A stretch of DNA of 64,000 nt from an uncultured Candidatus Saccharibacteria bacterium. GTDB lineage: Bacteria; Patescibacteriota; Minisyncoccia; Phycocordibacterales; Phycocordibacteraceae. A program made the translations under genes and the position numbers. How positions within the stretch are numbered: the stretch's first letter is position 1; each line of letters begins with the position of its first letter. Shown piece by piece: positions 1,088 to 64,000 of the stretch. The notes beneath the pieces were generated by a model. The model saw nothing but the letters and a program-made list of their open reading frames with translations, had not been told where the DNA came from and did no database searches. The stretch lies in assembly GCA_964638585.1 (NCBI GenBank), contig CAZXAN010000003.1, positions 30,047-94,046 on the forward strand, written 5' to 3'.

Positions 1088-1689
1088 GATAGTGAATTCG
1101 CAACTATCGCCCCTGAAGACAATACTGATATGTTCTTCGCGTTACTCACACCGCCTTGTGGAGAGATGATCTTGATACATGCCGAAGAATAAACCGCCCC
1201 GTTCCCGCGTATAGCCGGGGTCGGGTTTGGTCGCGCAAATACAATATCAAGACTGGTCAAGCTACCACTCGCACATGACGGCCCTGCACAGAAGTCACTT
1301 ATAGTTACACTGTTACCAAGCGTATATGTCCGGATGACCTGATCGCCAGCACCGTATTTATTATCACCAGGCTTGCAATCTGGCGTCATACCAGAGCAAG
1401 ATGCCCCGCCAGCCAAATCAGCAAACAAGATAAAAGAGTTTGGAGTCCCTTTTTGCACGTTGATGCCATAGCCGACGCCAACAGAACTGCCTATCGCTTT
1501 ACCACTGATACCAAACGTCTCTGCAGAACGCAGAGTTAGAGCGATGTCATAAGCAGTATTTGAGAGAAGCAAGCTCTTATTAAAAGAACTTTGACTGTTT
1601 AGCGTAATTGAAGTTATTACACCTATAATCGCGAGCACGACTATAAGCTCAATTAGAGTAAATCCCCTATATATAGAAATAGATTCCAT
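1078..1689 (-). CDS. Pilin-like protein (prepilin N-terminal domain)
   Basis: N-terminus MESISIYRGFTLIELIVVLAIIGVITS. Confidence 0.8.
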   Translation of the reverse strand: MESISIYRGFTLIELIVVLAIIGVITSITLNSQSSFNKSLLLSNTAYDIALTLRSAETFGISGKAIGSSVGVGYGINVQKGTPNSFILFADLAGGASCSGMTPDCKPGDNKYGAGDQVIRTYTLGNSVTISDFCAGPSCASGSLTSLDIVFARPNPTPAIRGNGAVYSSACIKIISPQGGVSNAKNISVLSSGAIVANSLSCP

Positions 1690-2972: not shown

Positions 2973-4178
2973 TCAAATAGAGCCGGCGAGGTTATAGATA
3001 GGCATGAGCACAGCAGCGAGCAACACTCCTACCCCTAGGCCGAGCGCGACTATCATTATCGGCTCTATAAGCCCTACCAGGGTATCAACCGCGTTTGTCA
3101 CTTCACGGCCATAAAACTTTGCCAATGTGCTAAGTATCTTACCCAATTCTCCGGTCTCTTCGCCAACCTTTGTCATAGCGACCATAATCCCAGGTATCTC
3201 TGGGTGCTTGCCAAAAGCGTCTGATATAGACGATCCGCCCTTAACAGCCGTGCTGACGTCAGATAGCACGGCCTCGTATGCTGCGTTGCCAACGACAGAA
3301 GCGGTGATCTCTATTGCCGCAACAACCGACACACCAGAGAGAAGCATGGTTGAGAAGTTGTCTGAAATACGCGAGAGGTAAAGTTTTTTATATAGGTCAC
3401 CAACATAAGGGATTGAGAGTTTTAAGCTATCTAGGACAAGTTTCCCATTTTTAGTCTTTCTTAGTTGCCACACGTAAAAACCGACGGCGATCATAGCAAT
3501 GAGTACGAAAATGCCGTACTGAACAAGGAAGTTGGACAGCCCTATAACAATCTTCGTGTAGATCGGTACTTCTTGTCCTGAATCAACAAGAATCGCACTT
3601 ATCTTAGGTATCACAAGCGTCAACATAAGCGCCATAACGCTGAAAAAGACGGCAACGACGAAGATCGGATAGATGAGTGCGTTCTCGGCCTTACTCATAA
3701 TATCGTAGGTACGATCAAGGTAGTCGGCAAGATAGTTAAATATTTCAGACAGCTTGCCTGACTCCTCTCCTGCACGGACCATATTTACGTAGAAGTCACC
3801 GAAGACGTTCGGATGTCGTGCAAGAGCCGAGCTAATAGGACTACCACCCTGAATGTCGTCACCGACACTAGAGATAATCGCTGCTAGTTGTTTATTCTCA
3901 ATCTCGCTTGCGAGTAAGCGGAATATGCGCAGAGTAGACACCTGAGCCTCAAACAGTGTCGCTATCTGTCTAGATAGGATGACAACGTCTTTATTGGATA
4001 TTCTGTTGAAAAACGTGATGTCTATTTTAAAGATTGATTTCTTGTCGGCAGATTCTATAACAGAGACTATGAGACTTCGCCTCTGGAGCGCAGACACAGC
4101 AACTTCTTGAGATGGGGCTTCAATAGTCCCATCCCTCTCGTGTCCATCTTGGTCAATCGCGTGGTATTTAAAAAGCAT
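2973..4178 (-). CDS. pilC: Type IV pilus assembly platform protein (GspF/PilC family)
   Basis: 401 aa with three TM segments and two GspF-like cytoplasmic repeats. Confidence 0.85.
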   Translation of the reverse strand: MLFKYHAIDQDGHERDGTIEAPSQEVAVSALQRRSLIVSVIESADKKSIFKIDITFFNRISNKDVVILSRQIATLFEAQVSTLRIFRLLASEIENKQLAAIISSVGDDIQGGSPISSALARHPNVFGDFYVNMVRAGEESGKLSEIFNYLADYLDRTYDIMSKAENALIYPIFVVAVFFSVMALMLTLVIPKISAILVDSGQEVPIYTKIVIGLSNFLVQYGIFVLIAMIAVGFYVWQLRKTKNGKLVLDSLKLSIPYVGDLYKKLYLSRISDNFSTMLLSGVSVVAAIEITASVVGNAAYEAVLSDVSTAVKGGSSISDAFGKHPEIPGIMVAMTKVGEETGELGKILSTLAKFYGREVTNAVDTLVGLIEPIMIVALGLGVGVLLAAVLMPIYNLAGSI

Positions 4179-4570: not shown

Positions 4571-4603
4571 CTAGAGCCTAGCGCCTAATGCCTAGTCGGC
4601 TAG
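4571..4603. repeat. CTAG-heptamer repeat, right arm (inverted)
   Basis: CTAGAGCCTAGCGCCTAATGCCTAGTCGGCTAG. Its reverse complement contains the same 18-mer as 4180-4197. Confidence 0.8.
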
Positions 4604-5692
4604 TTAAAGGTAGTGCTCAAACGTCTTCGGGTCCATCGCATATTCATAGGCATGTTCAACTGTCACTTCTCCCCTCTTAACAAGCTCTGATAGAGATCGG
4701 TCCATGTCAATCATGCCCTCTTGCGAAGATGTCTGGATGACAGCGTTAATCTCGTGCGTCCTCGCGTCGCGGATAAGAGTGCTGACGGCGTTGTTATTGA
4801 TTAGAAGTTCGTATGCTGGGATGAGACCGCCAGATATTCTTGGGATCAGTCTTTGCGAGAAGATGCCTGCAAGCGAGCCTGCGAGCTGTACACGCACCTG
4901 CGCTTGCTGTTCTGAAGGGAACATGTCAATAATACGGTCTATTGTTTGTGCTGCATTATTTGTGTGGAGCGTAGAAAAGACGAGGTGACCAGTCTCGGCG
5001 GCTGTCACAGCCGAAGAAATAGTCTCGTAGTCACGCATCTCGCCAACCATGATAACGTCAACGTCTTCTCTGAAAGCAGACTGAAGAGCGGTATGGAAGT
5101 CTGGCGCGTCTATGTGAATCTCGCGCTGGTGTATAAGAGATTTTTTAGAAGTGAATAAGTACTCAACAGGGTCTTCAATAGTCAAAATGTGCTCTGCACG
5201 CGACTCATTTATAGAATCAATCATAGTAGCAAGAGTTGTAGACTTGCCCTGCCCTACTGGCCCCACGACAAGGAAGAACCCCTGTTCGCGTTGAGTGAAC
5301 ACTTCAAGAATCGGTGGCAAGTTTAGCTCTGTTAATGTACGTATTGAATGCGGTATAAGCCGTAGTGCGAGCGCTGTAGTCCCTTGCACTCTATATCCAT
5401 TAACGCGGAAACGTGCATCAGCACCATGCGCAAGAGATACGTCAATTGTTTGATCCTTTTGAAAATGGTCCCATCTGTCTTCTGGGACAATGCTCTTAAG
5501 CATGCTCTCAGTCTCTTCTTCTGTAAACGCAGGGTATTTAGAAATTGGCAAAAGAGCTCCGGAGACACGAATCATAGGCGGACCACCCACAAATACGTGG
5601 ATGTCTGACCCTCCTTCTTTAATAACTATATCCAGAAGCTCGGCGAGATGTTTGTTGGTAGACATAGTTTTATGATTACTTAACTGCGCCAA
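4604..5692 (-). CDS. pilT: Twitching-motility ATPase
   Basis: 362 aa with Walker A GPVGQGKST and PilT-type motifs. Confidence 0.9.
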   Translation of the reverse strand: MAQLSNHKTMSTNKHLAELLDIVIKEGGSDIHVFVGGPPMIRVSGALLPISKYPAFTEEETESMLKSIVPEDRWDHFQKDQTIDVSLAHGADARFRVNGYRVQGTTALALRLIPHSIRTLTELNLPPILEVFTQREQGFFLVVGPVGQGKSTTLATMIDSINESRAEHILTIEDPVEYLFTSKKSLIHQREIHIDAPDFHTALQSAFREDVDVIMVGEMRDYETISSAVTAAETGHLVFSTLHTNNAAQTIDRIIDMFPSEQQAQVRVQLAGSLAGIFSQRLIPRISGGLIPAYELLINNNAVSTLIRDARTHEINAVIQTSSQEGMIDMDRSLSELVKRGEVTVEHAYEYAMDPKTFEHYL

Positions 5693-6119: not shown

Positions 6120-7890
6120 CGGGGAAAAGTTCTCCGCCTAGGGTGTTTATCTCTTCAAACGGGATTACGCCTGAGAGAGCCTTTACGATTGCGTCCTCAC
6201 GCATAGTGAGCATCCCGCTTGCGCGCGCAGCTGCGTAAACACTCTCTTCATTAGATGCGGTAAGAACTGCTTGTTCAATATTCTTATTCATGCGCAATAT
6301 CTCAAAAACACCTGTACGTCCTCGAGTGCCATTTGGACACTCTGTAGTCGGCTTCGCGTGATAAAACTCTTTGAGCGGTGGTAGAAGTTTTTTGTCTTTG
6401 TCTGGTAAGTCTGCAAATTGGCGTTCAAGAAGTGATTTTATGCTAGCTTCTACAGGGAAAGGGTCCCCTGCACCTTCACACAATTTACGCACTAGTCGTT
6501 GCCCTATAACTCCGACCAATGTTGGAGCGATAAGAAATGGGTCAACGCCCATGTCAATAAGGCGCGGTATAGCACCAGTCGCCGTGTTGGTGTGGATGGT
6601 AGAAAAAACGAGATGTCCTGTAAGCGCGGCTTGTACTGCGAGAACGGCGGTCTCTTTATCGCGGATTTCGCCTACCATAATAACGTCTGGGTCTTGACGC
6701 AAGATAGAACGGAGACCTGCAGCAAACGTGTAACCGATTTCTGGGCGCACCTGACTTTGCGCGACTCCCTGAATCTGATATTCAACAGGATCTTCAAGCG
6801 ATACAACGTTTGAAGTCTCTCTATCTGTCTCCGAGAGCATCGCAAAAAGGGTCGTAGATTTACCACTTCCGGTAGGTCCAGCAATAAGGATAATGCCGTA
6901 TGGCACTTTCATCATATCGCGTACAACAACAAGCTGGTCCTTTGAGAATCCTACCGATTCAAGAGTCGCTGTCGCGTCCGATTGGTCAAGAATTCTCATC
7001 ACGACCTTTTCACCGTATTCTGTAGGGAATGTTGACACGCGGAAGTCAATGCGTCTTTTGTCTATTGTTGCTGAGAAACGGCCGTCCTGCGGTTTGCGTT
7101 TCTCATCAAGACGCAATTTTGCGAGTATCTTTATACGTGCAACAACTGCTTCATGCACTTTTGCCGGTAGCTCAAGCGATGTATGCAGATCACCGTCCAT
7201 GCGGAAACGTACACGAGTCTTGGTAGGAGATGGCTCTATGTGTACATCTGAAGAATGTCCGTCAATAGCGTATCTTAAAATCGTAGAAACGATTTTGGTC
7301 ACTGGAGCATCCTCTTTCAAAGCTTCTTTTGTTCCAGTTAACGTAATTTGTTCTTCGCCAAAACTCTGAGCGTCAATAGACGTGACTGACGGCTCTTGCT
7401 GTTTATGTTCTGACGCAGGAGGTTCGGCGCTCATGTCGTATTCAGAAAGAGCTTTGCCTATCTCACCGGAGAGGTTTTGATATGCGCTAATGACGCGATC
7501 AAAATCTTGCTTTGTAATGAGAAAAACCTTATATGGCGTGCCGATTTTGCTTGAAATAAATTGCAACGCATCAAGTGCTTCTATGTTGTCTGGGTCAACA
7601 ACCCCAACTTCAAGCGCTCCGTCTACCATATCAAGCGGGACGAACCCGTAGTGAATTGCAGAATCAATCGGTATATAGCTGAATACCTCTTCATTGGCTG
7701 GAGGATCGCCGAGTATCCTAGAAGGCAGACCATAGGAGTCACCAACCTCCTTAAGTATCTCTTCAACAGAAATCCCACGCTCACTAAAGACATCTACAAG
7801 CGAACGGTTTTTTGCGAGTTCACGCTCAATACTCACCCTGTCATTAGGAGAGATATGTCCCTTTTCAATTAATAGTCCAAAAAAATTCAT
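6103..7890 (-). CDS. pilB: Type IV pilus assembly ATPase (GspE/PilB family)
   Basis: 595 aa with an N-terminal GSPII_E_N-like domain, Walker A GPTGSGKST and Asp/His boxes. Confidence 0.9.
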   Translation of the reverse strand: MNFFGLLIEKGHISPNDRVSIERELAKNRSLVDVFSERGISVEEILKEVGDSYGLPSRILGDPPANEEVFSYIPIDSAIHYGFVPLDMVDGALEVGVVDPDNIEALDALQFISSKIGTPYKVFLITKQDFDRVISAYQNLSGEIGKALSEYDMSAEPPASEHKQQEPSVTSIDAQSFGEEQITLTGTKEALKEDAPVTKIVSTILRYAIDGHSSDVHIEPSPTKTRVRFRMDGDLHTSLELPAKVHEAVVARIKILAKLRLDEKRKPQDGRFSATIDKRRIDFRVSTFPTEYGEKVVMRILDQSDATATLESVGFSKDQLVVVRDMMKVPYGIILIAGPTGSGKSTTLFAMLSETDRETSNVVSLEDPVEYQIQGVAQSQVRPEIGYTFAAGLRSILRQDPDVIMVGEIRDKETAVLAVQAALTGHLVFSTIHTNTATGAIPRLIDMGVDPFLIAPTLVGVIGQRLVRKLCEGAGDPFPVEASIKSLLERQFADLPDKDKKLLPPLKEFYHAKPTTECPNGTRGRTGVFEILRMNKNIEQAVLTASNEESVYAAARASGMLTMREDAIVKALSGVIPFEEINTLGGELFPVDETA

Positions 7891-15502: not shown

Positions 15503-15508
15503 ATTCGC

Positions 15509-15554
15509 GCAGAAAAAGAAAACTGGCACCAAAGTGCCAGTTTTCTTTTTCTGC
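15509..15554. terminator. Bidirectional intrinsic terminator with a perfect 21-bp stem (GCAGAAAAAGAAAACTGGCAC/GTGCCAGTTTTCTTTTTCTGC)
   Basis: Sits between the convergent DUF4105 (+) and DUF378 (-) genes. Confidence 0.7.
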
Positions 15555-15575
15555 GTAAATTCGGGTTTGCCGAAT

Positions 15576-29612: not shown

Positions 29613-29633
29613 TCAGTAGTACCGAAAGCAAAA

Positions 29634-29662
29634 AGCCGGGCAATGCCCGGCTTTTTTATTTT
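29634..29662. terminator. Intrinsic terminator AGCCGGGCA-ATG-CCCGGCT plus a T-run (bidirectional, also follows groEL)
   Basis: Perfect 8-bp GC stem followed by TTTTTTATTTT. Confidence 0.8.
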
Positions 29663-44790: not shown

Positions 44791-44890
44791 TCGACTAGGT
44801 CCAGTATTCCTGGAATCATGTCAGTAAAAGAAAACTGCGCGTACGCGCAGTTTTCTTTTACCGACGAACGCATGTGATATTCTAAGCAGA

Positions 44891-55115: not shown

Positions 55116-55132
55116 TTCTCTTACTATACCGC

Positions 55133-55164
55133 AAAAATCCACTCCTTTAGGAGTGGATTTTTGT
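55133..55164. terminator. Bidirectional terminator AAAAATCCACTCC-TTT-AGGAGTGGATTTTT
   Basis: Perfect 13-bp stem flanked by A5/T5 on both sides. Confidence 0.75.
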
Positions 55165-57310: not shown

Positions 57311-58585
57311 TTAATATTCTCGCAGAGAGACTTGGGCGTCGATTTTGCGAGCGAGGTCGAGAGCGACCTGTACGGCGATGAGGAGGGCTGTGCCACCGAG
57401 GACAATCGTGGTGATTCCTGTTAAACCTTGGATTATAGACGGAGAAATAGCAATAAGACCGAGGAATATTGCTCCGGGGAATGTAACGCGATTTACAACA
57501 TTGCTGATAAAATCTTCTGTCTCTCGGCCTGGGCGCACTCCTGGGACAAAGGCTCCGGACTTCTGAAGGTTCTCTGCAACTCTGTGCGGTTCAAACGTTA
57601 CAGAAGTATAAAAATAGGTAAAAAGAACAACAAGAATAAAATAGACCGTTCCATAATTCCACGGGTTGGTGAGGAATGCCGAATACCAGAGCGCAGCGCT
57701 AGATGCAAACGAAACATTCACAGCTCCAAGCATTGAGAGCGCCATCTGTGGCACAAGCAAGAGGGATAGAGCGAAGATGATTGGGATAACGCCAGCTTGT
57801 AAGAGGCGTATGGGTAGGTATGTAGCAGCGTTCTGTGCAAGCGCCGCGCCACGGACTGCGCGCGCATATGCGATAGGTATAGACCTCTCTGCATCAGACA
57901 CTACGACTACCGCATAAATCATTGCAAGTGACAGAATAGTGAAGCCTAAGTATGCAGGAATATCTGATGCGCCCGCAACAAAAAGAGCGTTTGAGATGCT
58001 TGATGGCACGCTCGCTAGAATGCCTGCAAGAATGACCAACGAGACGCCGTTACCAATACCAAACTCTGTCACCAGCTCTCCGATCCACATAAGTAGTAGG
58101 GAACCGGCGGTTACGATCGCGATGTTCGCGATAAGCGTTACCGAATTCAAGTGCGATATAACGCCCTGACTCTGGAGCAAGAACAAGAACCCAACGGCTT
58201 GCAAAACTGCCATAGGTATAGTGAGTAAACGGCTCCAATTGATAAACTTTGCGCGCCCAGCCTCTCCCTCTTCATGATACGCCTGCTTAATTTGTGGAAA
58301 AATAATCGTGCCTAATTGCATAATGATAGACGCCGTGATGTACGGTCCAACACCGAGCATAACTATTGAGAGGCTTGATAGCCCACCGCCAGAGAAAATA
58401 TTTAAGATGCCGAGGAATTGATTGTTTGAGAAAAATGCTGCAAGCGCTGTTTTATCAACGCCAGGGATTGGAATTGAAGCGAGAATGCGGAAAAGTGCCA
58501 GCGCACCAACTAAAAAGAGTATACGGAAGCGGATTTCAGGATCTCCGAAAGCGAGTTTGAGTTTGTGTATAAAGGTTTTAAGCAT
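57311..58585 (-). CDS. secY: Preprotein translocase subunit SecY
   Basis: 10 TM helices in the operon-conserved position. Start taken at MLKTFIHKL. Confidence 0.9.
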   Translation of the reverse strand: MLKTFIHKLKLAFGDPEIRFRILFLVGALALFRILASIPIPGVDKTALAAFFSNNQFLGILNIFSGGGLSSLSIVMLGVGPYITASIIMQLGTIIFPQIKQAYHEEGEAGRAKFINWSRLLTIPMAVLQAVGFLFLLQSQGVISHLNSVTLIANIAIVTAGSLLLMWIGELVTEFGIGNGVSLVILAGILASVPSSISNALFVAGASDIPAYLGFTILSLAMIYAVVVVSDAERSIPIAYARAVRGAALAQNAATYLPIRLLQAGVIPIIFALSLLLVPQMALSMLGAVNVSFASSAALWYSAFLTNPWNYGTVYFILVVLFTYFYTSVTFEPHRVAENLQKSGAFVPGVRPGRETEDFISNVVNRVTFPGAIFLGLIAISPSIIQGLTGITTIVLGGTALLIAVQVALDLARKIDAQVSLREY

Positions 58586-59033
58586 GGGTTTGTGTGCCGC
58601 CCACCGCAATTACTGCAGCGAGAGCAGATGCAGACAGTGTACAACCCTTTATAACGAGAGCCTTTGTGAGAGATCCTGTACCCAAGATCTTAACAACCGG
58701 CGCGCGACCCTTCTTTCTACGGACCAAGCCTTTAGCAACCAGAGAAGACGGTGTGACTGTCTCTCCTGCCTTATACATAGACTCAAGAGCAGATAGACTG
58801 ATAACTGTCGTAGCGATACGATTAGTCTTAACAGTGCGAGCACGATTCTTGCCAAAGCCACGGCGCTTTGGGAGCTTCTTTATAAGGTCACGCACCTCTG
58901 GGCGTATGTGGTGTCCTGCGCGTGCTGTTTGCCCCTTACCACCACGGCCGCTTGTTTTGCCACGCTTGCCTCCTCGGCCTACGGGTGCATTCTTCTTATT
59001 TTTAGTGCGTGCTTTAAATGTGTGGAGTTGCAT
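58578..59033 (-). CDS. rplO: 50S ribosomal protein L15
   Basis: Gly/Arg-rich N-terminus GRGGKRGKTSGRGGKG. Confidence 0.9.
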   Translation of the reverse strand: MQLHTFKARTKNKKNAPVGRGGKRGKTSGRGGKGQTARAGHHIRPEVRDLIKKLPKRRGFGKNRARTVKTNRIATTVISLSALESMYKAGETVTPSSLVAKGLVRRKKGRAPVVKILGTGSLTKALVIKGCTLSASALAAVIAVGGTQTHA

Positions 59034-59043
59034 ACAAAATTTA

Positions 59044-59661
59044 TTACGCCTTGCGAAGTTTCTTAAGAGCAGCGACCGTCGCACGAGCGATAGTGAGCTT
59101 GTTCTTAGAACGACTGTGAATCTTTGTCACGACATCTGTCACACCAGCAAGATCAAGCACAGTGCGGACAGCCGAGCCGGCGACGAGACCACGACCCTGT
59201 GATGGGATTATTTCTACAGTGGACGAAGCATATTTGGTTACAACTTGGTGCGGGATAGAACCAGAAGCTGTGCGAGGAATAGTGAAGAGGTGTTTCTTTG
59301 CATCACGCACAGCCTTATCTATAGCGAGAGCCGTATCAATACCTTTGCCTAAGCCGACACCAACACGCCCCTTCTTGTCGCCAATGACGACCACGAGACT
59401 GAAGTTGAATCGACGACCACCTGCCATAACACGAGCCACGCGTCGCGCATCAATCGTTACTTGCTCAAACTCTCCGCGCTCACGTGGTGCTCGACTGCGA
59501 CTGCCACCTCTCTGTGCACGACCTCTTATAGATCCACGACCTCCGCGAGCCGGCACGGTAGCTACAGGAGAAACCTCTTCTGGAGTTATTTCAACTGGTA
59601 CTGGAACACCGGTAACGATGTCTTCTTCTTTTATTATTTCTGGCTCCATTGGTGTAGTCAT
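59044..59661 (-). CDS. rpsE: 30S ribosomal protein S5 (with an acidic N-terminal extension)
   Basis: S5 dsRBD and C-terminal domain motifs. Directly precedes rplO, so no L30 gene is present. Confidence 0.9.
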   Translation of the reverse strand: MTTPMEPEIIKEEDIVTGVPVPVEITPEEVSPVATVPARGGRGSIRGRAQRGGSRSRAPRERGEFEQVTIDARRVARVMAGGRRFNFSLVVVIGDKKGRVGVGLGKGIDTALAIDKAVRDAKKHLFTIPRTASGSIPHQVVTKYASSTVEIIPSQGRGLVAGSAVRTVLDLAGVTDVVTKIHSRSKNKLTIARATVAALKKLRKA

Positions 59662-59667
59662 AAGTAT

Positions 59668-60018
59668 TTAAAATTTGAGTCCGCCTTCGCGAGCCGCATC
59701 GGCGAGCGACTTAACCTGTCCGCCGTAGCGATAACCGCCACGGTCAAAGACTGCTGCCGTGACTCCGAGCGCGACCGCCTTCTTGGCGATCGCCGAGCCG
59801 ACCGACTTCGCCTGAAGCGACTGTGCGCCCTTGAACTCTCGTCCGTGTGCGGCCGCAACCGTCTTTCCTGCTGTATCGTCAATCAGCTGTGCCGAGACGA
59901 AGCGGTTACTACGGAAGACAGCGAGACGCGGACGCTCAGCAGTGCCCTTCACTGTCGCCCTTACTCTCGCATGTCTGCGCTTGCGTAGTTCGCTATTTGT
60001 TTTAGGTTTGTGATTCAT
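59668..60018 (-). CDS. rplR: 50S ribosomal protein L18
   Basis: 116 aa, RPRLAVFRSNR... Confidence 0.9.
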   Translation of the reverse strand: MNHKPKTNSELRKRRHARVRATVKGTAERPRLAVFRSNRFVSAQLIDDTAGKTVAAAHGREFKGAQSLQAKSVGSAIAKKAVALGVTAAVFDRGGYRYGGQVKSLADAAREGGLKF

Positions 60019-60048
60019 GTTTTTGTATTTCCTGCTTACTGCTTTCTG

Positions 60049-60579
60049 CTACACGGCCTTCTTACCTTGCTTCCTGCGGATCACCTCTCCTTCATAGTGA
60101 ATGCCTTTGCCAAGATACGGCTCCGGTGGCTTTACACGGCGAACGTTTGCGGCAAATTGTCCGACTGCCTCCTTGTCAGAACTCTCAATCGTCATAACAT
60201 TCTTTTCTGCCTTTGCTGTAATTCCTTCTGGAATCGGGAGTGACACTGTGTGAGAGAATCCGACAGTTAGAATTACATCCTTACCCTTCACTTCCATACG
60301 GTACCCAACGCCGTCCAAAATAAGCTTTTTTATGTATGGTGTCTCAACACCTTGTACCATATTCTTCACATGCGAGGCGAATGTGCCGGTGAGTGCCTTA
60401 GCGAGACGCGAAGTATTCTTCGGCGTAATCATCACTCCATCAGCGCCTACCTCGATATCAATAGACGGATGTACGCGCTTGATGAGCGTACCCTTCGCTC
60501 CTTTCACGACGAGATCCCCACCTGTCACCGAGACAGTCGTCTTTCCTATTGATATTGGCTTCTTAGCGAGTCGTGACAT
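60049..60579 (-). CDS. rplF: 50S ribosomal protein L6
   Basis: MSRLAKKPISIGK... ; 176 aa. Confidence 0.9.
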   Translation of the reverse strand: MSRLAKKPISIGKTTVSVTGGDLVVKGAKGTLIKRVHPSIDIEVGADGVMITPKNTSRLAKALTGTFASHVKNMVQGVETPYIKKLILDGVGYRMEVKGKDVILTVGFSHTVSLPIPEGITAKAEKNVMTIESSDKEAVGQFAANVRRVKPPEPYLGKGIHYEGEVIRRKQGKKAV

Positions 60580-60583
60580 AAGT

Positions 60584-60616
60584 AATTATTTATAGTGAGC
60601 GTAGTCGAACTACCAG
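60584..60616. repeat. 32-nt repeated intergenic/3'-end sequence AATTATTTATAGTGAGCGTAGTCGAACTACCA (copy 1, rpsH-rplF junction)
   Basis: Near-identical to 61016-61047 (one substitution). Confidence 0.7.
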
Positions 60617-61014
60617 ATCTGGAACAACTCTTCGCCACCAGAGCGAGTCTTGCGCGCCTCTGAGTCAGTGATAATCCCAGACGGCGAAGAAATAACCATC
60701 GCTCCTGTGCCACCCTTCACCTTGTGCGCCGTCGTGAACGGCGTGTAGAGCCGTCGACCCGGCTTGCTTATTCTCTTCACGCCACGGAGCTTCGCGACAC
60801 CATGCTCGTTGTACGCGAGCGTTACTGCAAAACTTCTCTGCACTTTTTCATCTTCTGCTTTTTCTATTTTTACAGAATCTATAAATCCAAGCTCTTTCAG
60901 TTTCTTCGCGATCGCGACAAGGTGGAGCGAGTAGGGTACAGAAACGTCCTTCTTGCCGACGATAGCGGCATTCTGCAAACGGATTATAAAATCTCCAACT
61001 TTATCCGTAATCAT
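60610..61014 (-). CDS. rpsH: 30S ribosomal protein S8
   Basis: 134 aa, operon position. Confidence 0.9.
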   Translation of the reverse strand: MITDKVGDFIIRLQNAAIVGKKDVSVPYSLHLVAIAKKLKELGFIDSVKIEKAEDEKVQRSFAVTLAYNEHGVAKLRGVKRISKPGRRLYTPFTTAHKVKGGTGAMVISSPSGIITDSEARKTRSGGEELFQIW

Positions 61015-61015
61015 A

Positions 61016-61047
61016 AATTATTTATAGTGAGCATAGTCGAACTACCA
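61016..61047. repeat. 32-nt repeat copy 2 (rpsN-rpsH junction)
   Basis: AATTATTTATAGTGAGCATAGTCGAACTACCA. Confidence 0.7.
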
Positions 61048-61311
61048 AGAGGCCTTCTTAACGCCCGGTATCTTCCCTTCTCGCGCGAGCTCGCGGAACT
61101 TGATGCGTGAGAGTCCGAATGTGCGCATATAGCCTCGAGAACGGCCGGTTATACCACAGCGGTTCTTCAGCCTTACTGGCGAAGAGTTTCTCGGGAGCTT
61201 CTGGAGGCCTTCAGAATCACCAGCCAACTTCAAAGCCGCACGCTTAACGGCGTACTTCTTTACGAGTTTCTGCTTCTTAGCAAGTCTCGCCAATTGGGAT
61301 GCTTTTGCCAT
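61042..61311 (-). CDS. rpsN: 30S ribosomal protein S14
   Basis: 89 aa, ...[26 protein letters not shown]... Confidence 0.9.
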
Positions 61312-61444
61312 AGGGATAATTAAGGGCTCTCTGGGACTCTACCTACCTCCCGCACTCATTTTGAAGTAAAAATAAAGCCCCCGAGGAGCGTGAATATAAT
61401 GTATCACCTAGTTCCTGCGCCGTCAAACTTCCTTTTGCATGAAA

Positions 61445-61472
61445 GGGAAACCCCACTGAAGTGGGGTCTTTC
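61445..61472. terminator. Hairpin GGGAAACCCCACT-GA-AGTGGGGTCTTTC downstream (sense) of the HTH gene
   Basis: Stem of about 11 bp with one mismatch, 13 nt after the HTH stop. Confidence 0.45.
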
Positions 61473-61484
61473 TGAGTGGCTTAA

Positions 61485-61703
61485 CTAGTCCACTATTGTT
61501 CCTTTTCGGGCGACGATGATGTTAAAAAGAGCTAGACGTGAGGCAGAAATAAGTGGGCTCTTGCGCTGCTCCCAGTTTCTGACTGTCCCGAGCGGTACAT
61601 CGAACGTATCGGCAAACTGCTCCTGCGTCAGCTTCAAGGAGTTTCTAAAGCCAATTAACTCTTCTGAGGTAACCGCCGCCTTCGATACACTCCTCTTACT
61701 CAT
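61485..61703 (-). CDS. XRE-family helix-turn-helix protein (72 aa; antitoxin/Cro-like) inserted in the r-protein operon
   Basis: HTH LTQEQFADTFDVPLGTVRNWEQRKS. A GGGGGTG SD lies 5 nt upstream and a TTGACA box further upstream. The raw ORF's N-terminal extension is discarded. Confidence 0.7.
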   Translation of the reverse strand: MSKRSVSKAAVTSEELIGFRNSLKLTQEQFADTFDVPLGTVRNWEQRKSPLISASRLALFNIIVARKGTIVD

Positions 61704-61778
61704 GAGACACCCCCTATTTGTCGATTTAAAAATGCACATTAAGAAACATACATTGCCGTTCGATGCCATGTCAAATGC

Positions 61779-61811
61779 AAAGGGTCATGGCCGAACAGCC
61801 ATGACCCTTTT
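61779..61811. terminator. Perfect 13-bp hairpin AAAGGGTCATGGC-CGAACA-GCCATGACCCTTT between rplE and the HTH gene
   Basis: Immediately after the rplE stop on the sense strand. Confidence 0.5.
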
Positions 61812-61824
61812 AAAAATTACGAAA

Positions 61825-62373
61825 TTACTTCTTAGTTGCCTCTACGATAAGCGGCATGCCAATGTGGCGGAAGAATGCCTCGGCTTCGGCTTTTGACTTG
61901 GCCGTGGTGACTATCGTTATGGCGAGACCGAACACGTCCTTCAGATCTTCATCTGAGGTCTCAGGAAATATTGTATGCTCTTTTATACCAATCGTAATGT
62001 TACCCATATCGTCTATGGTTGACGCTTTAAGACCGCGGAAGTCGCGTGTACGCGGGAGGGCGATATGGATGAGCTTATCGATAAAGTCGTACATGCGAGC
62101 GCCGCGGAGCGTCACTTGGAGGCCTACAGTGTCGCCCTCGCGCACCTTAAAAGCGGCGATAGAGATCTTCGCGCCGCGTAGAGCAGACTTCTGCCCTGTA
62201 ATCTTGGCGAGGCGATCTTGAATCACTTCTATTTGTTTTTTATCTCGTTTCTTCCCTACTCCACTAGAGACGATGACTTTTGAAATGCGAGGGCCCTGCA
62301 TAGGACTGGTATAGCCGAACGCTTCTTTGAGTGCGATGTAGGCTTCTTGCTGACGTTGTTTAGTAATAGACAT
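61825..62373 (-). CDS. rplE: 50S ribosomal protein L5
   Basis: 182 aa. Confidence 0.9.
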   Translation of the reverse strand: MSITKQRQQEAYIALKEAFGYTSPMQGPRISKVIVSSGVGKKRDKKQIEVIQDRLAKITGQKSALRGAKISIAAFKVREGDTVGLQVTLRGARMYDFIDKLIHIALPRTRDFRGLKASTIDDMGNITIGIKEHTIFPETSDEDLKDVFGLAITIVTTAKSKAEAEAFFRHIGMPLIVEATKK

Positions 62374-62376
62374 AAT

Positions 62377-62652
62377 TTATTTCTTATTAGCCTTGACTGG
62401 CTTATCTGACACTTCGAGAGCCGACTTAGTCTTCGTCGTTGAAACGAGCGCGACGTTGGACACATGAACAGCGCGAGGTCTCTCTACGATACGACCAGTC
62501 TGTCCCTGACGGCCTCTCGTGTGGCGCTTATAGAGCGCTACGCCTTCAATCACTACTTTATTCTCCTTTGGCAGGGCGCGTGCGACCACACCGGTCTTCC
62601 CTTTATCCTTTCCCGATATGACTCTCACTTTGTCTCCTTTTTTAATTTTCAT
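62377..62652 (-). CDS. rplX: 50S ribosomal protein L24
   Basis: [21 protein letters not shown] is a KOW-motif N-terminus. Confidence 0.9.
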
Positions 62653-62660
62653 ACAAATAT

Positions 62661-63038
62661 TTATACGACTTCGGGCGCGAGCGCGACGATAGAGTGCCAT
62701 CCCATCAAGGAGAGCTCGCGAGGCACAGGGCCGAAGATGCGGTTCCCTTTCGGCGCCATCTCCTTACCTTGCTTTTCTATAAGCACGACGGCGTTCTCAT
62801 CAAAGCGGATGTACGAGCCGTCCTTGCGACCGAAAGGCTTTACCTGGCGAACGACCACTGCGCGAAAGATGTCCTTCTTCTTCACCGCTTTACGTGGCAT
62901 TGCCGTCTGAATAGAAACAACGACAACGTCGCCGATCTCTGCGTAACGACGTTTACTGCCACCGAGCACCTTAAAGACGCGTGCGACAGTGCCGCCTGAG
63001 TTATCTGCAACTGCAACTATGGATTGTGGTTGTAACAT
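62661..63038 (-). CDS. rplN: 50S ribosomal protein L14
   Basis: [16 protein letters not shown]... Confidence 0.9.
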
Positions 63039-63045
63039 AAGAATA

Positions 63046-63074
63046 ATTAGGCACTAGGCTCTAGGTCTTTAGCC
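63046..63074. repeat. CTAG-heptamer repeat (ATTAGGCACTAGGCTCTAGGTCTTTAGCC) between rpsQ and rplN
   Basis: Overlaps the rpsQ stop codon. Confidence 0.7.
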
Positions 63075-63322
63075 TTCACGACATTCAAAATCGCGAAGCG
63101 CTTCAGTTTAGAGATGGGTCGCGTCGCGACGATAGTGACCGTGTCGCCAACTTTCACAGTATTACCTGGGTCGTGCGCGAGATACTTCTTAGAGCGCACA
63201 AAATACTTCTTGTACTTCGCATTCTTGACGTAGCGATCTACACGGACCGTAGCCGTGTCCTTCATCGCCGTCTTTACGACAGTACCAACGAATGTTTGCT
63301 TGAGTGAAGTTTTTGTTTCCAT
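63047..63322 (-). CDS. rpsQ: 30S ribosomal protein S17
   Basis: 91 aa. Confidence 0.9.
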   Translation of the reverse strand: METKTSLKQTFVGTVVKTAMKDTATVRVDRYVKNAKYKKYFVRSKKYLAHDPGNTVKVGDTVTIVATRPISKLKRFAILNVVKAKDLEPSA

Positions 63323-63324
63323 AA

Positions 63325-63540
63325 TTATGCGATTGCGACTTGCCGTGTACCTGTCGAACGGGCGCGTTGTTCGGTCAATACTCGAGCGATGGTCACACGG
63401 TGCTTCCTCGGCGCATTGGACTCCTTGGCACGTGCGCCTGCTGCAGAGAAACGTTCGGTGCGTAGCACTTCTCGTGTATCGGTGAGGAGCTTCACGAGCT
63501 CTGTGTCAGTCTTGGTCTTCATGTTGTCTCTTTTTGTCAT
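63325..63540 (-). CDS. rpmC: 50S ribosomal protein L29
   Basis: 71 aa. Confidence 0.85.
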   Translation of the reverse strand: MTKRDNMKTKTDTELVKLLTDTREVLRTERFSAAGARAKESNAPRKHRVTIARVLTEQRARSTGTRQVAIA

Positions 63541-63562
63541 AAAAATTGGAATAGCGCAAGGT

Positions 63563-63985
63563 TTATCGGCGAGCGATGATAGACGTAGTCAAAGGAAGCT
63601 TCGTCCCAGCCTGCTTCAGGTGTGCACGAGCAACACCCTCTTCAACGCCATCGAGCTCGAAGAGAATTCGACCTGGACGCACCTGAAATACATAGTGCTT
63701 AGGGTCGCCCTTACCGCTACCCATGCCCACCTCCGCCGGCTTCATCGTCACTGGTCGGTCGGGGAAGATTCGGATCCAGAGCTTGCCGGTCTTCGCTGTC
63801 GCGCGAGTGAGAACTTTTCTTGCAGACTCAATCTGGTTGCTCGTCACACGCGCGCTCGTGAGAGCCTTCAGCCCGAACGAACCAAACGCAACGGTAATAC
63901 CGCGCGTCTCCGGACGATTCAACCTCTTCGGACTCATCCTCTGAGTCTGCCACTTGCGGTGCTTCACTTTTTTAGGGAATAACAT
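63563..63985 (-). CDS. rplP: 50S ribosomal protein L16
   Basis: MLFPKKVKHRKWQT... ; 140 aa. Confidence 0.9.
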   Translation of the reverse strand: MLFPKKVKHRKWQTQRMSPKRLNRPETRGITVAFGSFGLKALTSARVTSNQIESARKVLTRATAKTGKLWIRIFPDRPVTMKPAEVGMGSGKGDPKHYVFQVRPGRILFELDGVEEGVARAHLKQAGTKLPLTTSIIARR

Positions 63986-64000
63986 AGCAGTTAATTTACA

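Follow-up and report, generated by a model that had tools for sequence, protein, structure and literature searches.

In Escherichia coli and Bacillus subtilis the str-S10-spc-alpha clusters of ribosomal protein (r-protein) genes are subdivided by internal promoters and terminators. Integration hotspots and islands of defence or toxin–antitoxin (TA) genes usually lie beside tRNA or other core genes; they have conserved flanks and variable cargo, rich in TA, restriction–modification and insertion sequence (IS) genes, which is present or absent between near-identical genomes. HigA2 of Vibrio cholerae, BrnA, the C-terminal domain of MqsA and Atu1735 (2ppx) share a four- or five-helix XRE helix–turn–helix (HTH) fold with the motif '...TQxxFA...PLxTxRNWEQG...'. 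A locus that resembles all three kinds of system is described here. It lies in a 64,000-nucleotide (nt) stretch of DNA, referred to as the window (contig CAZXAN010000003.1 of assembly GCA_964638585.1, positions 30,047 to 94,046), whose S10-spc cluster reads L16, L29, S17, L14, L24, L5, a spacer of exactly 513 nt, S14, S8, L6, L18, S5, L15 and SecY, all on the minus strand. The spacer (61312–61824), between rplE (L5) and rpsN (S14), contains a gene for a 72-aa HTH protein.

Each resemblance comes with a difference. As in the E. coli and B. subtilis operons, a sigma-70-type promoter within the cluster is predicted to restart the distal genes; unlike theirs, it lies across the final codons of rplE, stop included, and a second allele separates it from that gene and so makes room for cargo. 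The junction has the features of a hotspot (the same site, differing cargo, presence or absence among close relatives), except that it lies inside the S10-spc cluster, has no integrase or att site, and has a terminator and the relocated promoter as its boundaries. The HTH protein has the fold and motif of the HigA2 group, yet it lacks the upstream toxin gene, the N-terminal neutralising segment of HigA2 and BrnA and the zinc domain of MqsA, is 72 aa long as against 95–130 aa for that kind of protein, and falls below every NCBIfam and Pfam cut-off. Literature searches, in a library that was incomplete, gave no description of r-protein operon insertions in the Candidate Phyla Radiation (CPR), of a TA hotspot between rplE and rpsN or of a promoter overlapping a stop codon. 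The best explanation, to which we would give a probability of roughly 65% from the sequence comparisons, is that Candidatus Kaiserbacteria have a recurrent islet of accessory genes at this junction, that the spacer represents the split allele and that the cargo here is an autonomous, orphan-antitoxin-like HTH cassette.

The junction was surveyed with L5 as the probe. The region was fetched from 80 species-level genomes with L5 identities of 75–90%, belonging to Candidatus Kaiserbacteria or other Paceibacteria/Patescibacteria (some of the records carry a generic Saccharibacteria label), and 77 loci were usable. The anatomy of the junction, its conservation, the dimorphism of its alleles and the diversity of the cargo could be read directly from these loci. 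In 53 of the 77 the junction is compact, with a spacer of 34–45 nt, or of 109–113 nt in three loci where the only addition is the small leader element discussed below. The other 24, like the window, are split, which puts the islet in about 30% of Kaiserbacteria species. The initial annotation had regarded the 513 nt as an insert in a gene order that is almost invariant in bacteria; relative to the usual adjacency of rplE and rpsN it is indeed an insertion, although not a one-off: islets with variable cargo recur here, and this is one such cargo.

All 53 compact junctions follow the pattern ...CCGCTTATC-GTTGAC-tcgggcgtaaaacgc-TGA/TAtTCT-nnnnnn-ACGCTCyTCGGrGC-TTTATTTTTT-ATG(rpsN), where the solidus marks the end of rplE. 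This corresponds to a putative sigma-70-type promoter with an extended −10 (TTGAC[T/G] as the −35, 14 nt, TGA, TAnnn[T/G]) lying over the last eight rplE codons: the Val-Asp codons GTTGAC contain the −35, the TG of the extended −10 comes from the TGA stop codon and the −10 hexamer TAtTCT stands just past the stop. The −35 TTGAC[T/G], the Asp codon GAC and the TGA stop are each found in 53/53 compact alleles, and the Val codon is GTT in 51 of the 53, compared with 15% of the Val codons elsewhere in the same genes. Such constraint at synonymous sites indicates that selection acts on the DNA itself at the end of rplE.

In the split alleles rplE ends in ...VEAxKK, with TAA or TAG as the stop in 23/24; the window end likewise differs from the ...PLIVDSGVKR-TGA type of the 53 compact relatives. 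A strong A-run/stem/U-run hairpin follows this end in at least 10 alleles (the window and nine others), and its stem differs from locus to locus. The span of the cargo is 0.1–2.7 kb, and one allele of 102 nt (L024) has no cargo at all. Beyond it, 24/24 split alleles have T[T/A]GAC-N14/15-TGn-TAnnnT, which precedes the common hairpin/U-run leader and rpsN by 4–9 nt. The rpsN promoter motif, whose hexamers in the window stand 17 nt apart, is conserved in 77/77 related loci whether it lies in coding or non-coding DNA. Read in frame, the relocated promoter gives F-D-G-V-G-A-R-stop, which resembles the V-D-G/S-G-V-K-R-stop of compact L5 C-termini and so argues for homology, rather than convergence, between the relocated promoter and the one embedded in compact rplE.

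Two of the genomes differ in almost nothing else. The compact L041 and the split L047 (701 nt) share 99.6–99.9% identity in 4.4 kb of upstream and 1.1 kb of downstream sequence; they part 16 nt short of the L047 rplE stop and come together again 5 nt ahead of the rpsN ATG. With flanks so nearly identical, the two allele types evidently turn into one another, or replace one another by exchange, within very short spans of evolutionary time. Split alleles are scattered over a rough neighbour-joining tree of L5, S14 and S8, and in the pairs tested for horizontal transfer the identity of the cargo was similar to that of the r-protein flanks; repeated loss, repeated gain and recombinational exchange are all candidates for the cause of the scatter. 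From its majority and its compactness we infer that the compact state is ancestral.

The site is specific. Over the 17 consecutive junctions from L23 to SecY, inserts of more than 200 nt were found only at L5-S14 (23/77) and L2-S19 (11/28), with essentially none at the other 15. Since a hairpin of terminator type is found at the L2-S19 junction too and, between it and rpsS, a conserved ATTTGTCAAGGTTCTGGAA motif, both variable sites apparently coincide with boundaries of transcription units. A more purposeful reading may also be considered, namely that the junction is a 'safe harbour': a terminator-bearing insert would split the promoter from rplE and insulate a slot for the turnover of TA, defence and regulatory genes, near-universal rplE and rpsN would act as homology arms by which whole islets, the HTH cassette included, are exchanged between strains and species, and rplB-rpsS would be a second such slot. 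This we regard as tentative, and as somewhat improbable.

The rplB-rpsS (L2-S19) inserts of 0.37–0.85 kb occur in L018, L024, L028, L031, L032, L039, L043, L059, L073, L075 and L088. The genome of the window has one of its own just past window position 64000, an 855-nt insert with two unannotated ORFs of 125 and 98 aa and no Pfam family.

The cargo of the rplE-rpsN islets is listed with the other features in Table 1. One class, found in five loci on the opposite strand, encodes PaaX_M/Cas2-like proteins with a hydrophobic N-terminus. In L008 this gene is flanked on both sides by imperfect palindromes of about 40 bp (TATCCCAATAATGACCCTATAGGGTCCAAATGGGGATA-like), the same palindrome adjoins the gene in L017 and L018, and the rplE 3' end is duplicated beyond the cassette in L008 and L017. 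The unit is possibly a small mobile cassette.

Table 1 Features of the rplE-rpsN region in the window, and leader elements, cargo and inserts in related loci. Window positions count from the first letter of the stretch; L numbers denote loci of the survey
Locus	Feature	Position	Strand	Remarks
Window	rplE (uL5, 182 aa)	61825..62373	-	Pfam Ribosomal_L5 and L5_C; split-type 3' end ...PLIVEATKK-TAA
Window	Hairpin 1, intrinsic-terminator type	61779..61810	-	perfect 13-bp stem, 6-nt loop (or 13-14 bp, loop 4-6); -27.9 kcal/mol
Window	Putative promoter of the HTH cassette, TTGACA-18-TATGTT	61745..61774	-	sequence scan; hexamers conserved in L008
Window	Shine-Dalgarno sequence GGGGGTG	61708..61714	-	starts 11 nt and ends 4 nt before ATG; GGGGG core 6 nt upstream
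Window	Gene for 72-aa XRE-type HTH protein	61485..61703	-	ATG at 61703
Window	Hairpin 2, weak, terminator-like	61448..61469	-	3' of HTH stop; 9-bp RNA stem, UUCA loop, then UUUCCCUUUC
Window	Relocated operon-internal promoter (predicted), TTGACG-14 nt-TGA-TACATT, extended -10	61398..61426	-	sole match in the window; predicted to serve rpsN and downstream genes
Window	Spurious antisense ORF	61390..61488	+	no family match
Window	Presumed ancestral rpsN leader	61367..61389	-	5-bp hairpin GCUCC-UCG-GGGGC, then U-run UUUAUUUUUA; flagged as terminator-like by scan
Window	Degenerate remnant of structured leader element	61312..61366	-	55 nt to rpsN ATG; weak fold, -7 kcal/mol
Window	rpsN (uS14, 89 aa)	61042..61311	-	Pfam Ribosomal_S14, 99 bits
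Window	rpsN-rpsH spacer	61015..61041	-	
Window	rpsH-rplF spacer	60580..60609	-	
Window	Other A-run/GC-stem/T-run hairpins	2429-2469, 15508-15555, 29630-29656, 44824-44861, 55132-55163 and others		stems 11-22 bp
L047	Intact leader element	5168-5244		
L012	Intact leader element	7208-7281		
L060	Intact leader element	3561-3633		
L085	Intact leader element	4589-4664		
L029	Intact leader element	3239-3313		
L008	PaaX_M/Cas2-like cargo gene	1105-1686	-	PaaX_M match; cargo proteins of this class 193-197 aa
L016	PaaX_M/Cas2-like cargo gene	4635-5222	-	PaaX_M match
L017	PaaX_M/Cas2-like cargo gene	4615-5205	-	by similarity
L018	PaaX_M/Cas2-like cargo gene	4615-5196	-	by similarity
L083	PaaX_M/Cas2-like cargo gene	5029-5622	-	by similarity
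L078	Cargo			MazE + PemK and NTP_transf_2 (MNT) + HepT
L058	Cargo			PemK, with DUF5678 and retropepsin-like protease
L009	Cargo			DUF5678 and retropepsin-like protease
L015	Cargo			UPF0150/HicB-like (scanned)
L048	Cargo			UPF0150/HicB-like (by sequence similarity)
L022	Cargo			N6-methylase/Eco57I-type
L012	Cargo			rve-type IS
Several other split loci	Cargo			ORFans
L001	rplB-rpsS insert of the window genome	1369-2223		

The cargo of the window itself appears to be a single cassette. Hairpin 1, the perfect hairpin that had been noted right after rplE, begins 14 nt past the rplE stop and is followed by UUUGCAUUU. It is one of 11 long, perfect A-run/stem/T-run hairpins in the window, where shuffled sequences give 0.1, so it is not a chance feature; hairpins of this kind appear, from their form, to be the bidirectional intrinsic terminators of this genome. 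The TTGACA box and the Shine–Dalgarno (SD) sequence of the initial annotation are likewise present. By itself the promoter match is not above chance (2 sites as against 1.6 expected). The strong SD is locally atypical, because the 12 neighbouring r-protein genes and secY (58578–63985, minus strand) have SD-less, A/T-rich leaders. A hairpin does follow the HTH gene, with 8 perfect base pairs in the DNA or 9 in the RNA fold in place of the 11 first counted.

No conserved ORF other than the HTH gene was found in the 513 nt, and the covariance models of Rfam 15 run on 61250–61900 gave no match at the gathering score (the best was Chlorobi-1, with 17 bits against a 50-bit cut-off), nor did a permissive search. 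Three other readings of the spacer were rejected. The antisense ORF of 31/32 aa, already considered dubious when first noted, does exist, but as an artefact that overlaps the conserved promoter: the −10 to −35 promoter DNA, translated in reverse, accounts for its conserved 'MYHLxPAPSN', which, in this or similar form, recurs in the islets of L022, L074 and L008, with the length of the ORF and its remaining sequence varying between loci. Like it, a 37-aa ORF on the minus strand has no family match and only this apparent conservation. A 94-aa reading of the HTH ORF from 61769 would have a start that overlaps the −35 box and that L008 does not share; the 72-aa form is preferred, because only in that form are the start codon and SD shared with the ortholog.

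Profile searches with the 72-aa protein gave only sub-threshold NCBIfam matches (VC1465/XafT, the MqsA family, NadS and Y4mF-type antitoxins), generic HTH transcriptional repressor/regulator families in PHROG (E about 2e-6) and one marginal match in PADLOC (mad1, E 0.002); its ortholog P0002, described below, has a precomputed PF01381 match marked as weak. In a two-sequence AlphaFold (AF2) model, helices 13–22, 27–33, 38–46 and 54–71 form a compact bundle with an HTH (helices 2–3). The best Foldseek matches to this model were the HigA2 C-terminal domain (TM-score 0.64–0.68) and Atu1735/2ppx, and the top matches were all of XRE type (HigA2, 2ppx, CapH, Aca2, HipB, P2 C and C.Kpn2I). A profile search of PDB sequences agreed (2ppx, 3.5e-8; HigA-2, 3.5e-4), and the HTH domain has the RNWEQG-type signature. 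The fold and profile matches together confirm an XRE-type HTH protein. The HigA-2 alignment starts at residue 6 of the query and only at residue 34 of HigA-2, so the neutralising segment is missing. The protein is a bare DNA-binding domain of the HigA2/BrnA/MqsA-C type with neither a toxin gene nor a toxin-neutralising extension. No source found in a cluster look-up names it.

A representative library of 1.8 billion proteins contained 1162 matches below 1e-3, some of which are proteins of 66–86 aa with the same layout: a short N-terminus, '...TxE(E/D)hhxYRxSLGLTQEEFAxxFxhPLxThRNWEQ...' and a C-terminal helix. The contexts of these short forms that could be retrieved were solo, one amid housekeeping genes on a CPR-like contig and one in the cargo of a Tn7-like element. 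Longer relatives of 100–133 aa, with N-terminal extensions, are encoded directly behind HigB2/RelE-like or BrnT-like toxin genes. Many large proteins (239–1295 aa; P0003–P0009, P0011, P0012 and others) also turned up, in which 3–15 HTH units of this same kind (seven in P0003) stand in tandem, joined by acidic linkers, an unusual poly-HTH architecture.

These relationships bring in the main rival explanation, that the gene is the remnant of a type II TA module, an orphaned antitoxin of the HigA2/BrnA/MqsA kind whose toxin is gone and which may or may not still have some anti-addiction role. It is plausible: the HTH domain is nearest to HigA2 and 2ppx, the weak NCBIfam matches include MqsA and Y4mF-type antitoxins, longer homologs stand behind toxin genes, and the same junction holds complete TA pairs in L078, PemK in L058 and HicB-like genes in L015 and L048. 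Set against this is the absence of a toxin relic and of any room for one, as terminator and promoter elements take up both the 121 nt before the gene and the 173 nt after it, and neither the window gene nor its L008 counterpart adjoins a toxin gene (in the window rplE and the terminator lie upstream and rpsN downstream). The ~30–45-aa neutralising extension of HigA2 and BrnA is also missing, the L008 ortholog is equally solo, 66–86-aa solo proteins are found in other contexts, and a dN/dS of 0.20 describes a gene that is maintained rather than decaying. The observation that no toxin partner is visible thus holds, and of the suggestion of a mobile TA remnant the homology and the TA context are retained without the relic. 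On balance we consider this origin possible, with perhaps one chance in four.

The history of the gene was followed by a word-indexed search of 5.8 billion proteins, which returned only the identical protein on nine contigs, always as rplE-HTH-rpsN, and P0002 with 70% identity. P0002 belongs to L008, a different Kaiserbacteria species whose L5 and S14 are 84% and 93% identical to those of the window, and it too is encoded between rplE and rpsN. The L008 locus keeps both promoter hexamers (TTGACA...TATATT), the SD (GAGGGAGG at the same place) and the start codon. By the Nei–Gojobori method the two genes differ by a dN of 0.19 and a dS of 0.96 (dN/dS 0.20), and the adjacent rpsN has a dS of 0.97. 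From the low ratio and the equal dS values, the HTH gene is judged to be functional and under purifying selection, and to have been at the junction, co-diverging with rpsN, since the lineages of the window and L008 separated. A family HMM found no homologue in the other 23 junction islets and no paralog in the window. The gene is present at the junction in only one of the 77 related species (two of 78 when the window is counted); the initial annotation had proposed this comparison of relatives, and it finds a conserved ORF that is not lineage-wide.

The gene might instead be the relict repressor gene of a phage or other integrative mobile element that targeted the rplE-rpsN junction. The PHROG matches, the homolog in the cargo of a Tn7-like element and the rve-transposase IS in the split allele of L012 would fit such an origin, which we nevertheless consider very improbable. 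The window islet contains no site-specific recombinase, integrase, att-like direct repeats or phage genes, and around the HTH gene there is no divergent CI/Cro repressor pair, only r-protein genes. Moreover the cassette is only ~400 nt long, the ortholog has not left the site over a dS of ~1, and the allele boundaries are common to islets with unrelated cargo. The phage-repressor half of the earlier suggestion is weakened accordingly.

The initial annotation also raised the possibility that the HTH protein regulates the r-protein genes downstream, in which case it would be a dedicated regulator of rpsN-rpsH-rplF... acting on the promoter before rpsN. The gene does share a strand with that promoter, lies immediately upstream of it and has diverged in step with rpsN. 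The promoter and leader are, however, retained in 24/24 split alleles with unrelated cargo, or with none in L024, as well as in the 53 compact ones; being conserved with any cargo and with none, the promoter would appear to work without the HTH protein. In addition the gene is found in so few of the species, and no motif common to the HTH and rpsN promoters was found in both the window and L008. This role is accordingly a very unlikely one.

The preferred account, an islet opened at an internal promoter and carrying an autonomous cassette, can be put together as follows. In the compact state an operon-internal sigma-70-type promoter would overlap the end of rplE, so that the cluster is already broken at that point. 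In the split state rplE has a new 3' end, usually followed by an intrinsic terminator that probably halts transcription from upstream, and the old promoter would persist as non-coding DNA just upstream of the rpsN leader, where it would serve the downstream genes. The space between terminator and relocated promoter would then be transcriptionally insulated and could house variable cargo. An insert in the middle of the spc region would be tolerated because the internal promoter already divides the cluster there. In the window the cargo would be one autonomous cassette comprising a promoter, an SD, the 72-aa XRE-family HTH protein and a weak terminator. The protein is most likely a dimeric DNA-binding repressor of its own promoter, possibly with targets in trans, that is, an orphan antitoxin-like regulator, and expression of the downstream ribosomal genes would be secured by the relocated promoter and not by the HTH protein.

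Several points weigh against this account. The protein scores 20 bits against HTH_3 (PF01381), under the 23-bit gathering cut-off, and confidence in the AF2 model is moderate, with a pLDDT of 68. Promoter and terminator activity, the ancestral allele, DNA binding and autoregulation are deduced from sequence and conservation, and by inspection no convincing palindrome is shared by the HTH promoters of the window and L008, so that autoregulation is a hypothesis. The U-tract of hairpin 1 is interrupted and the terminator scan made no call there, whereas nine other split alleles have canonical A-run/stem/U-run terminators in the homologous position; hairpin 2 is weak and conserved only in part in L008. 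Lastly, the tree is too poorly resolved for gains and losses to be counted, and the reverse polarity, with a deletion fusing the promoter to rplE, is possible.

The leader of rpsN shows variation of its own. It has no SD; instead a short hairpin and U-run, conserved in all 77 loci, lies 6 nt after the −10 box and in most relatives directly abuts the rpsN ATG. In six loci (L047, L012, L060, L085, L029 and, in degenerate form, the window) a further 73–77 nt stand between the U-run and the ATG. The five intact elements form the same three-tier hairpin of 22 pairs, ten of which have compensatory double changes, with the conserved internal loops AGYGAG / CGARCGAGCGC; the window copy keeps only the 5' part. 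The element has no Rfam match and occurs with compact and split alleles alike. It is a candidate for a new r-protein leader (for autoregulation by uS8/uS14?) or for a small mobile hairpin.

Further downstream the spacer between rpsN and rpsH is almost the same as that between rpsH and rplF (TTCGACTAYGCTCACTATAAATAATT...ATG). The genes before them both end in Trp-TAG, and GACTAYGCTC is common to the two spacers and the rplE-rpsN leader. These sequences could signal the initiation of translation, mark a site of processing or have some other meaning. The gene for L30 is absent between rpsE and rplO (the S5/L15 boundary, region 59044–59084), which agrees with the assignment to Kaiserbacteria from the L5 relatives. 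The missing L30 is a known hallmark of the CPR.

The HTH protein itself is of modest significance, as a minimal, solo addition to the HigA2/BrnA-type HTH group; the gene is ordinary, and the architecture of the hotspot matters more. The overlap of promoter and coding sequence, in which a stop codon would double as the TG of an extended −10, offers a natural experiment. Clusters of r-protein genes are treated as invariant; they serve as markers in phylogeny and as scaffolds when CPR genomes are binned. A recurrent, polymorphic islet in the spc region suggests that the r-protein clusters of the CPR are subdivided by internal promoters, that accessory genes, largely of TA and defence kinds, can reside there without disturbing ribosome synthesis, and that the flanking marker genes may mediate the exchange of accessory genes.

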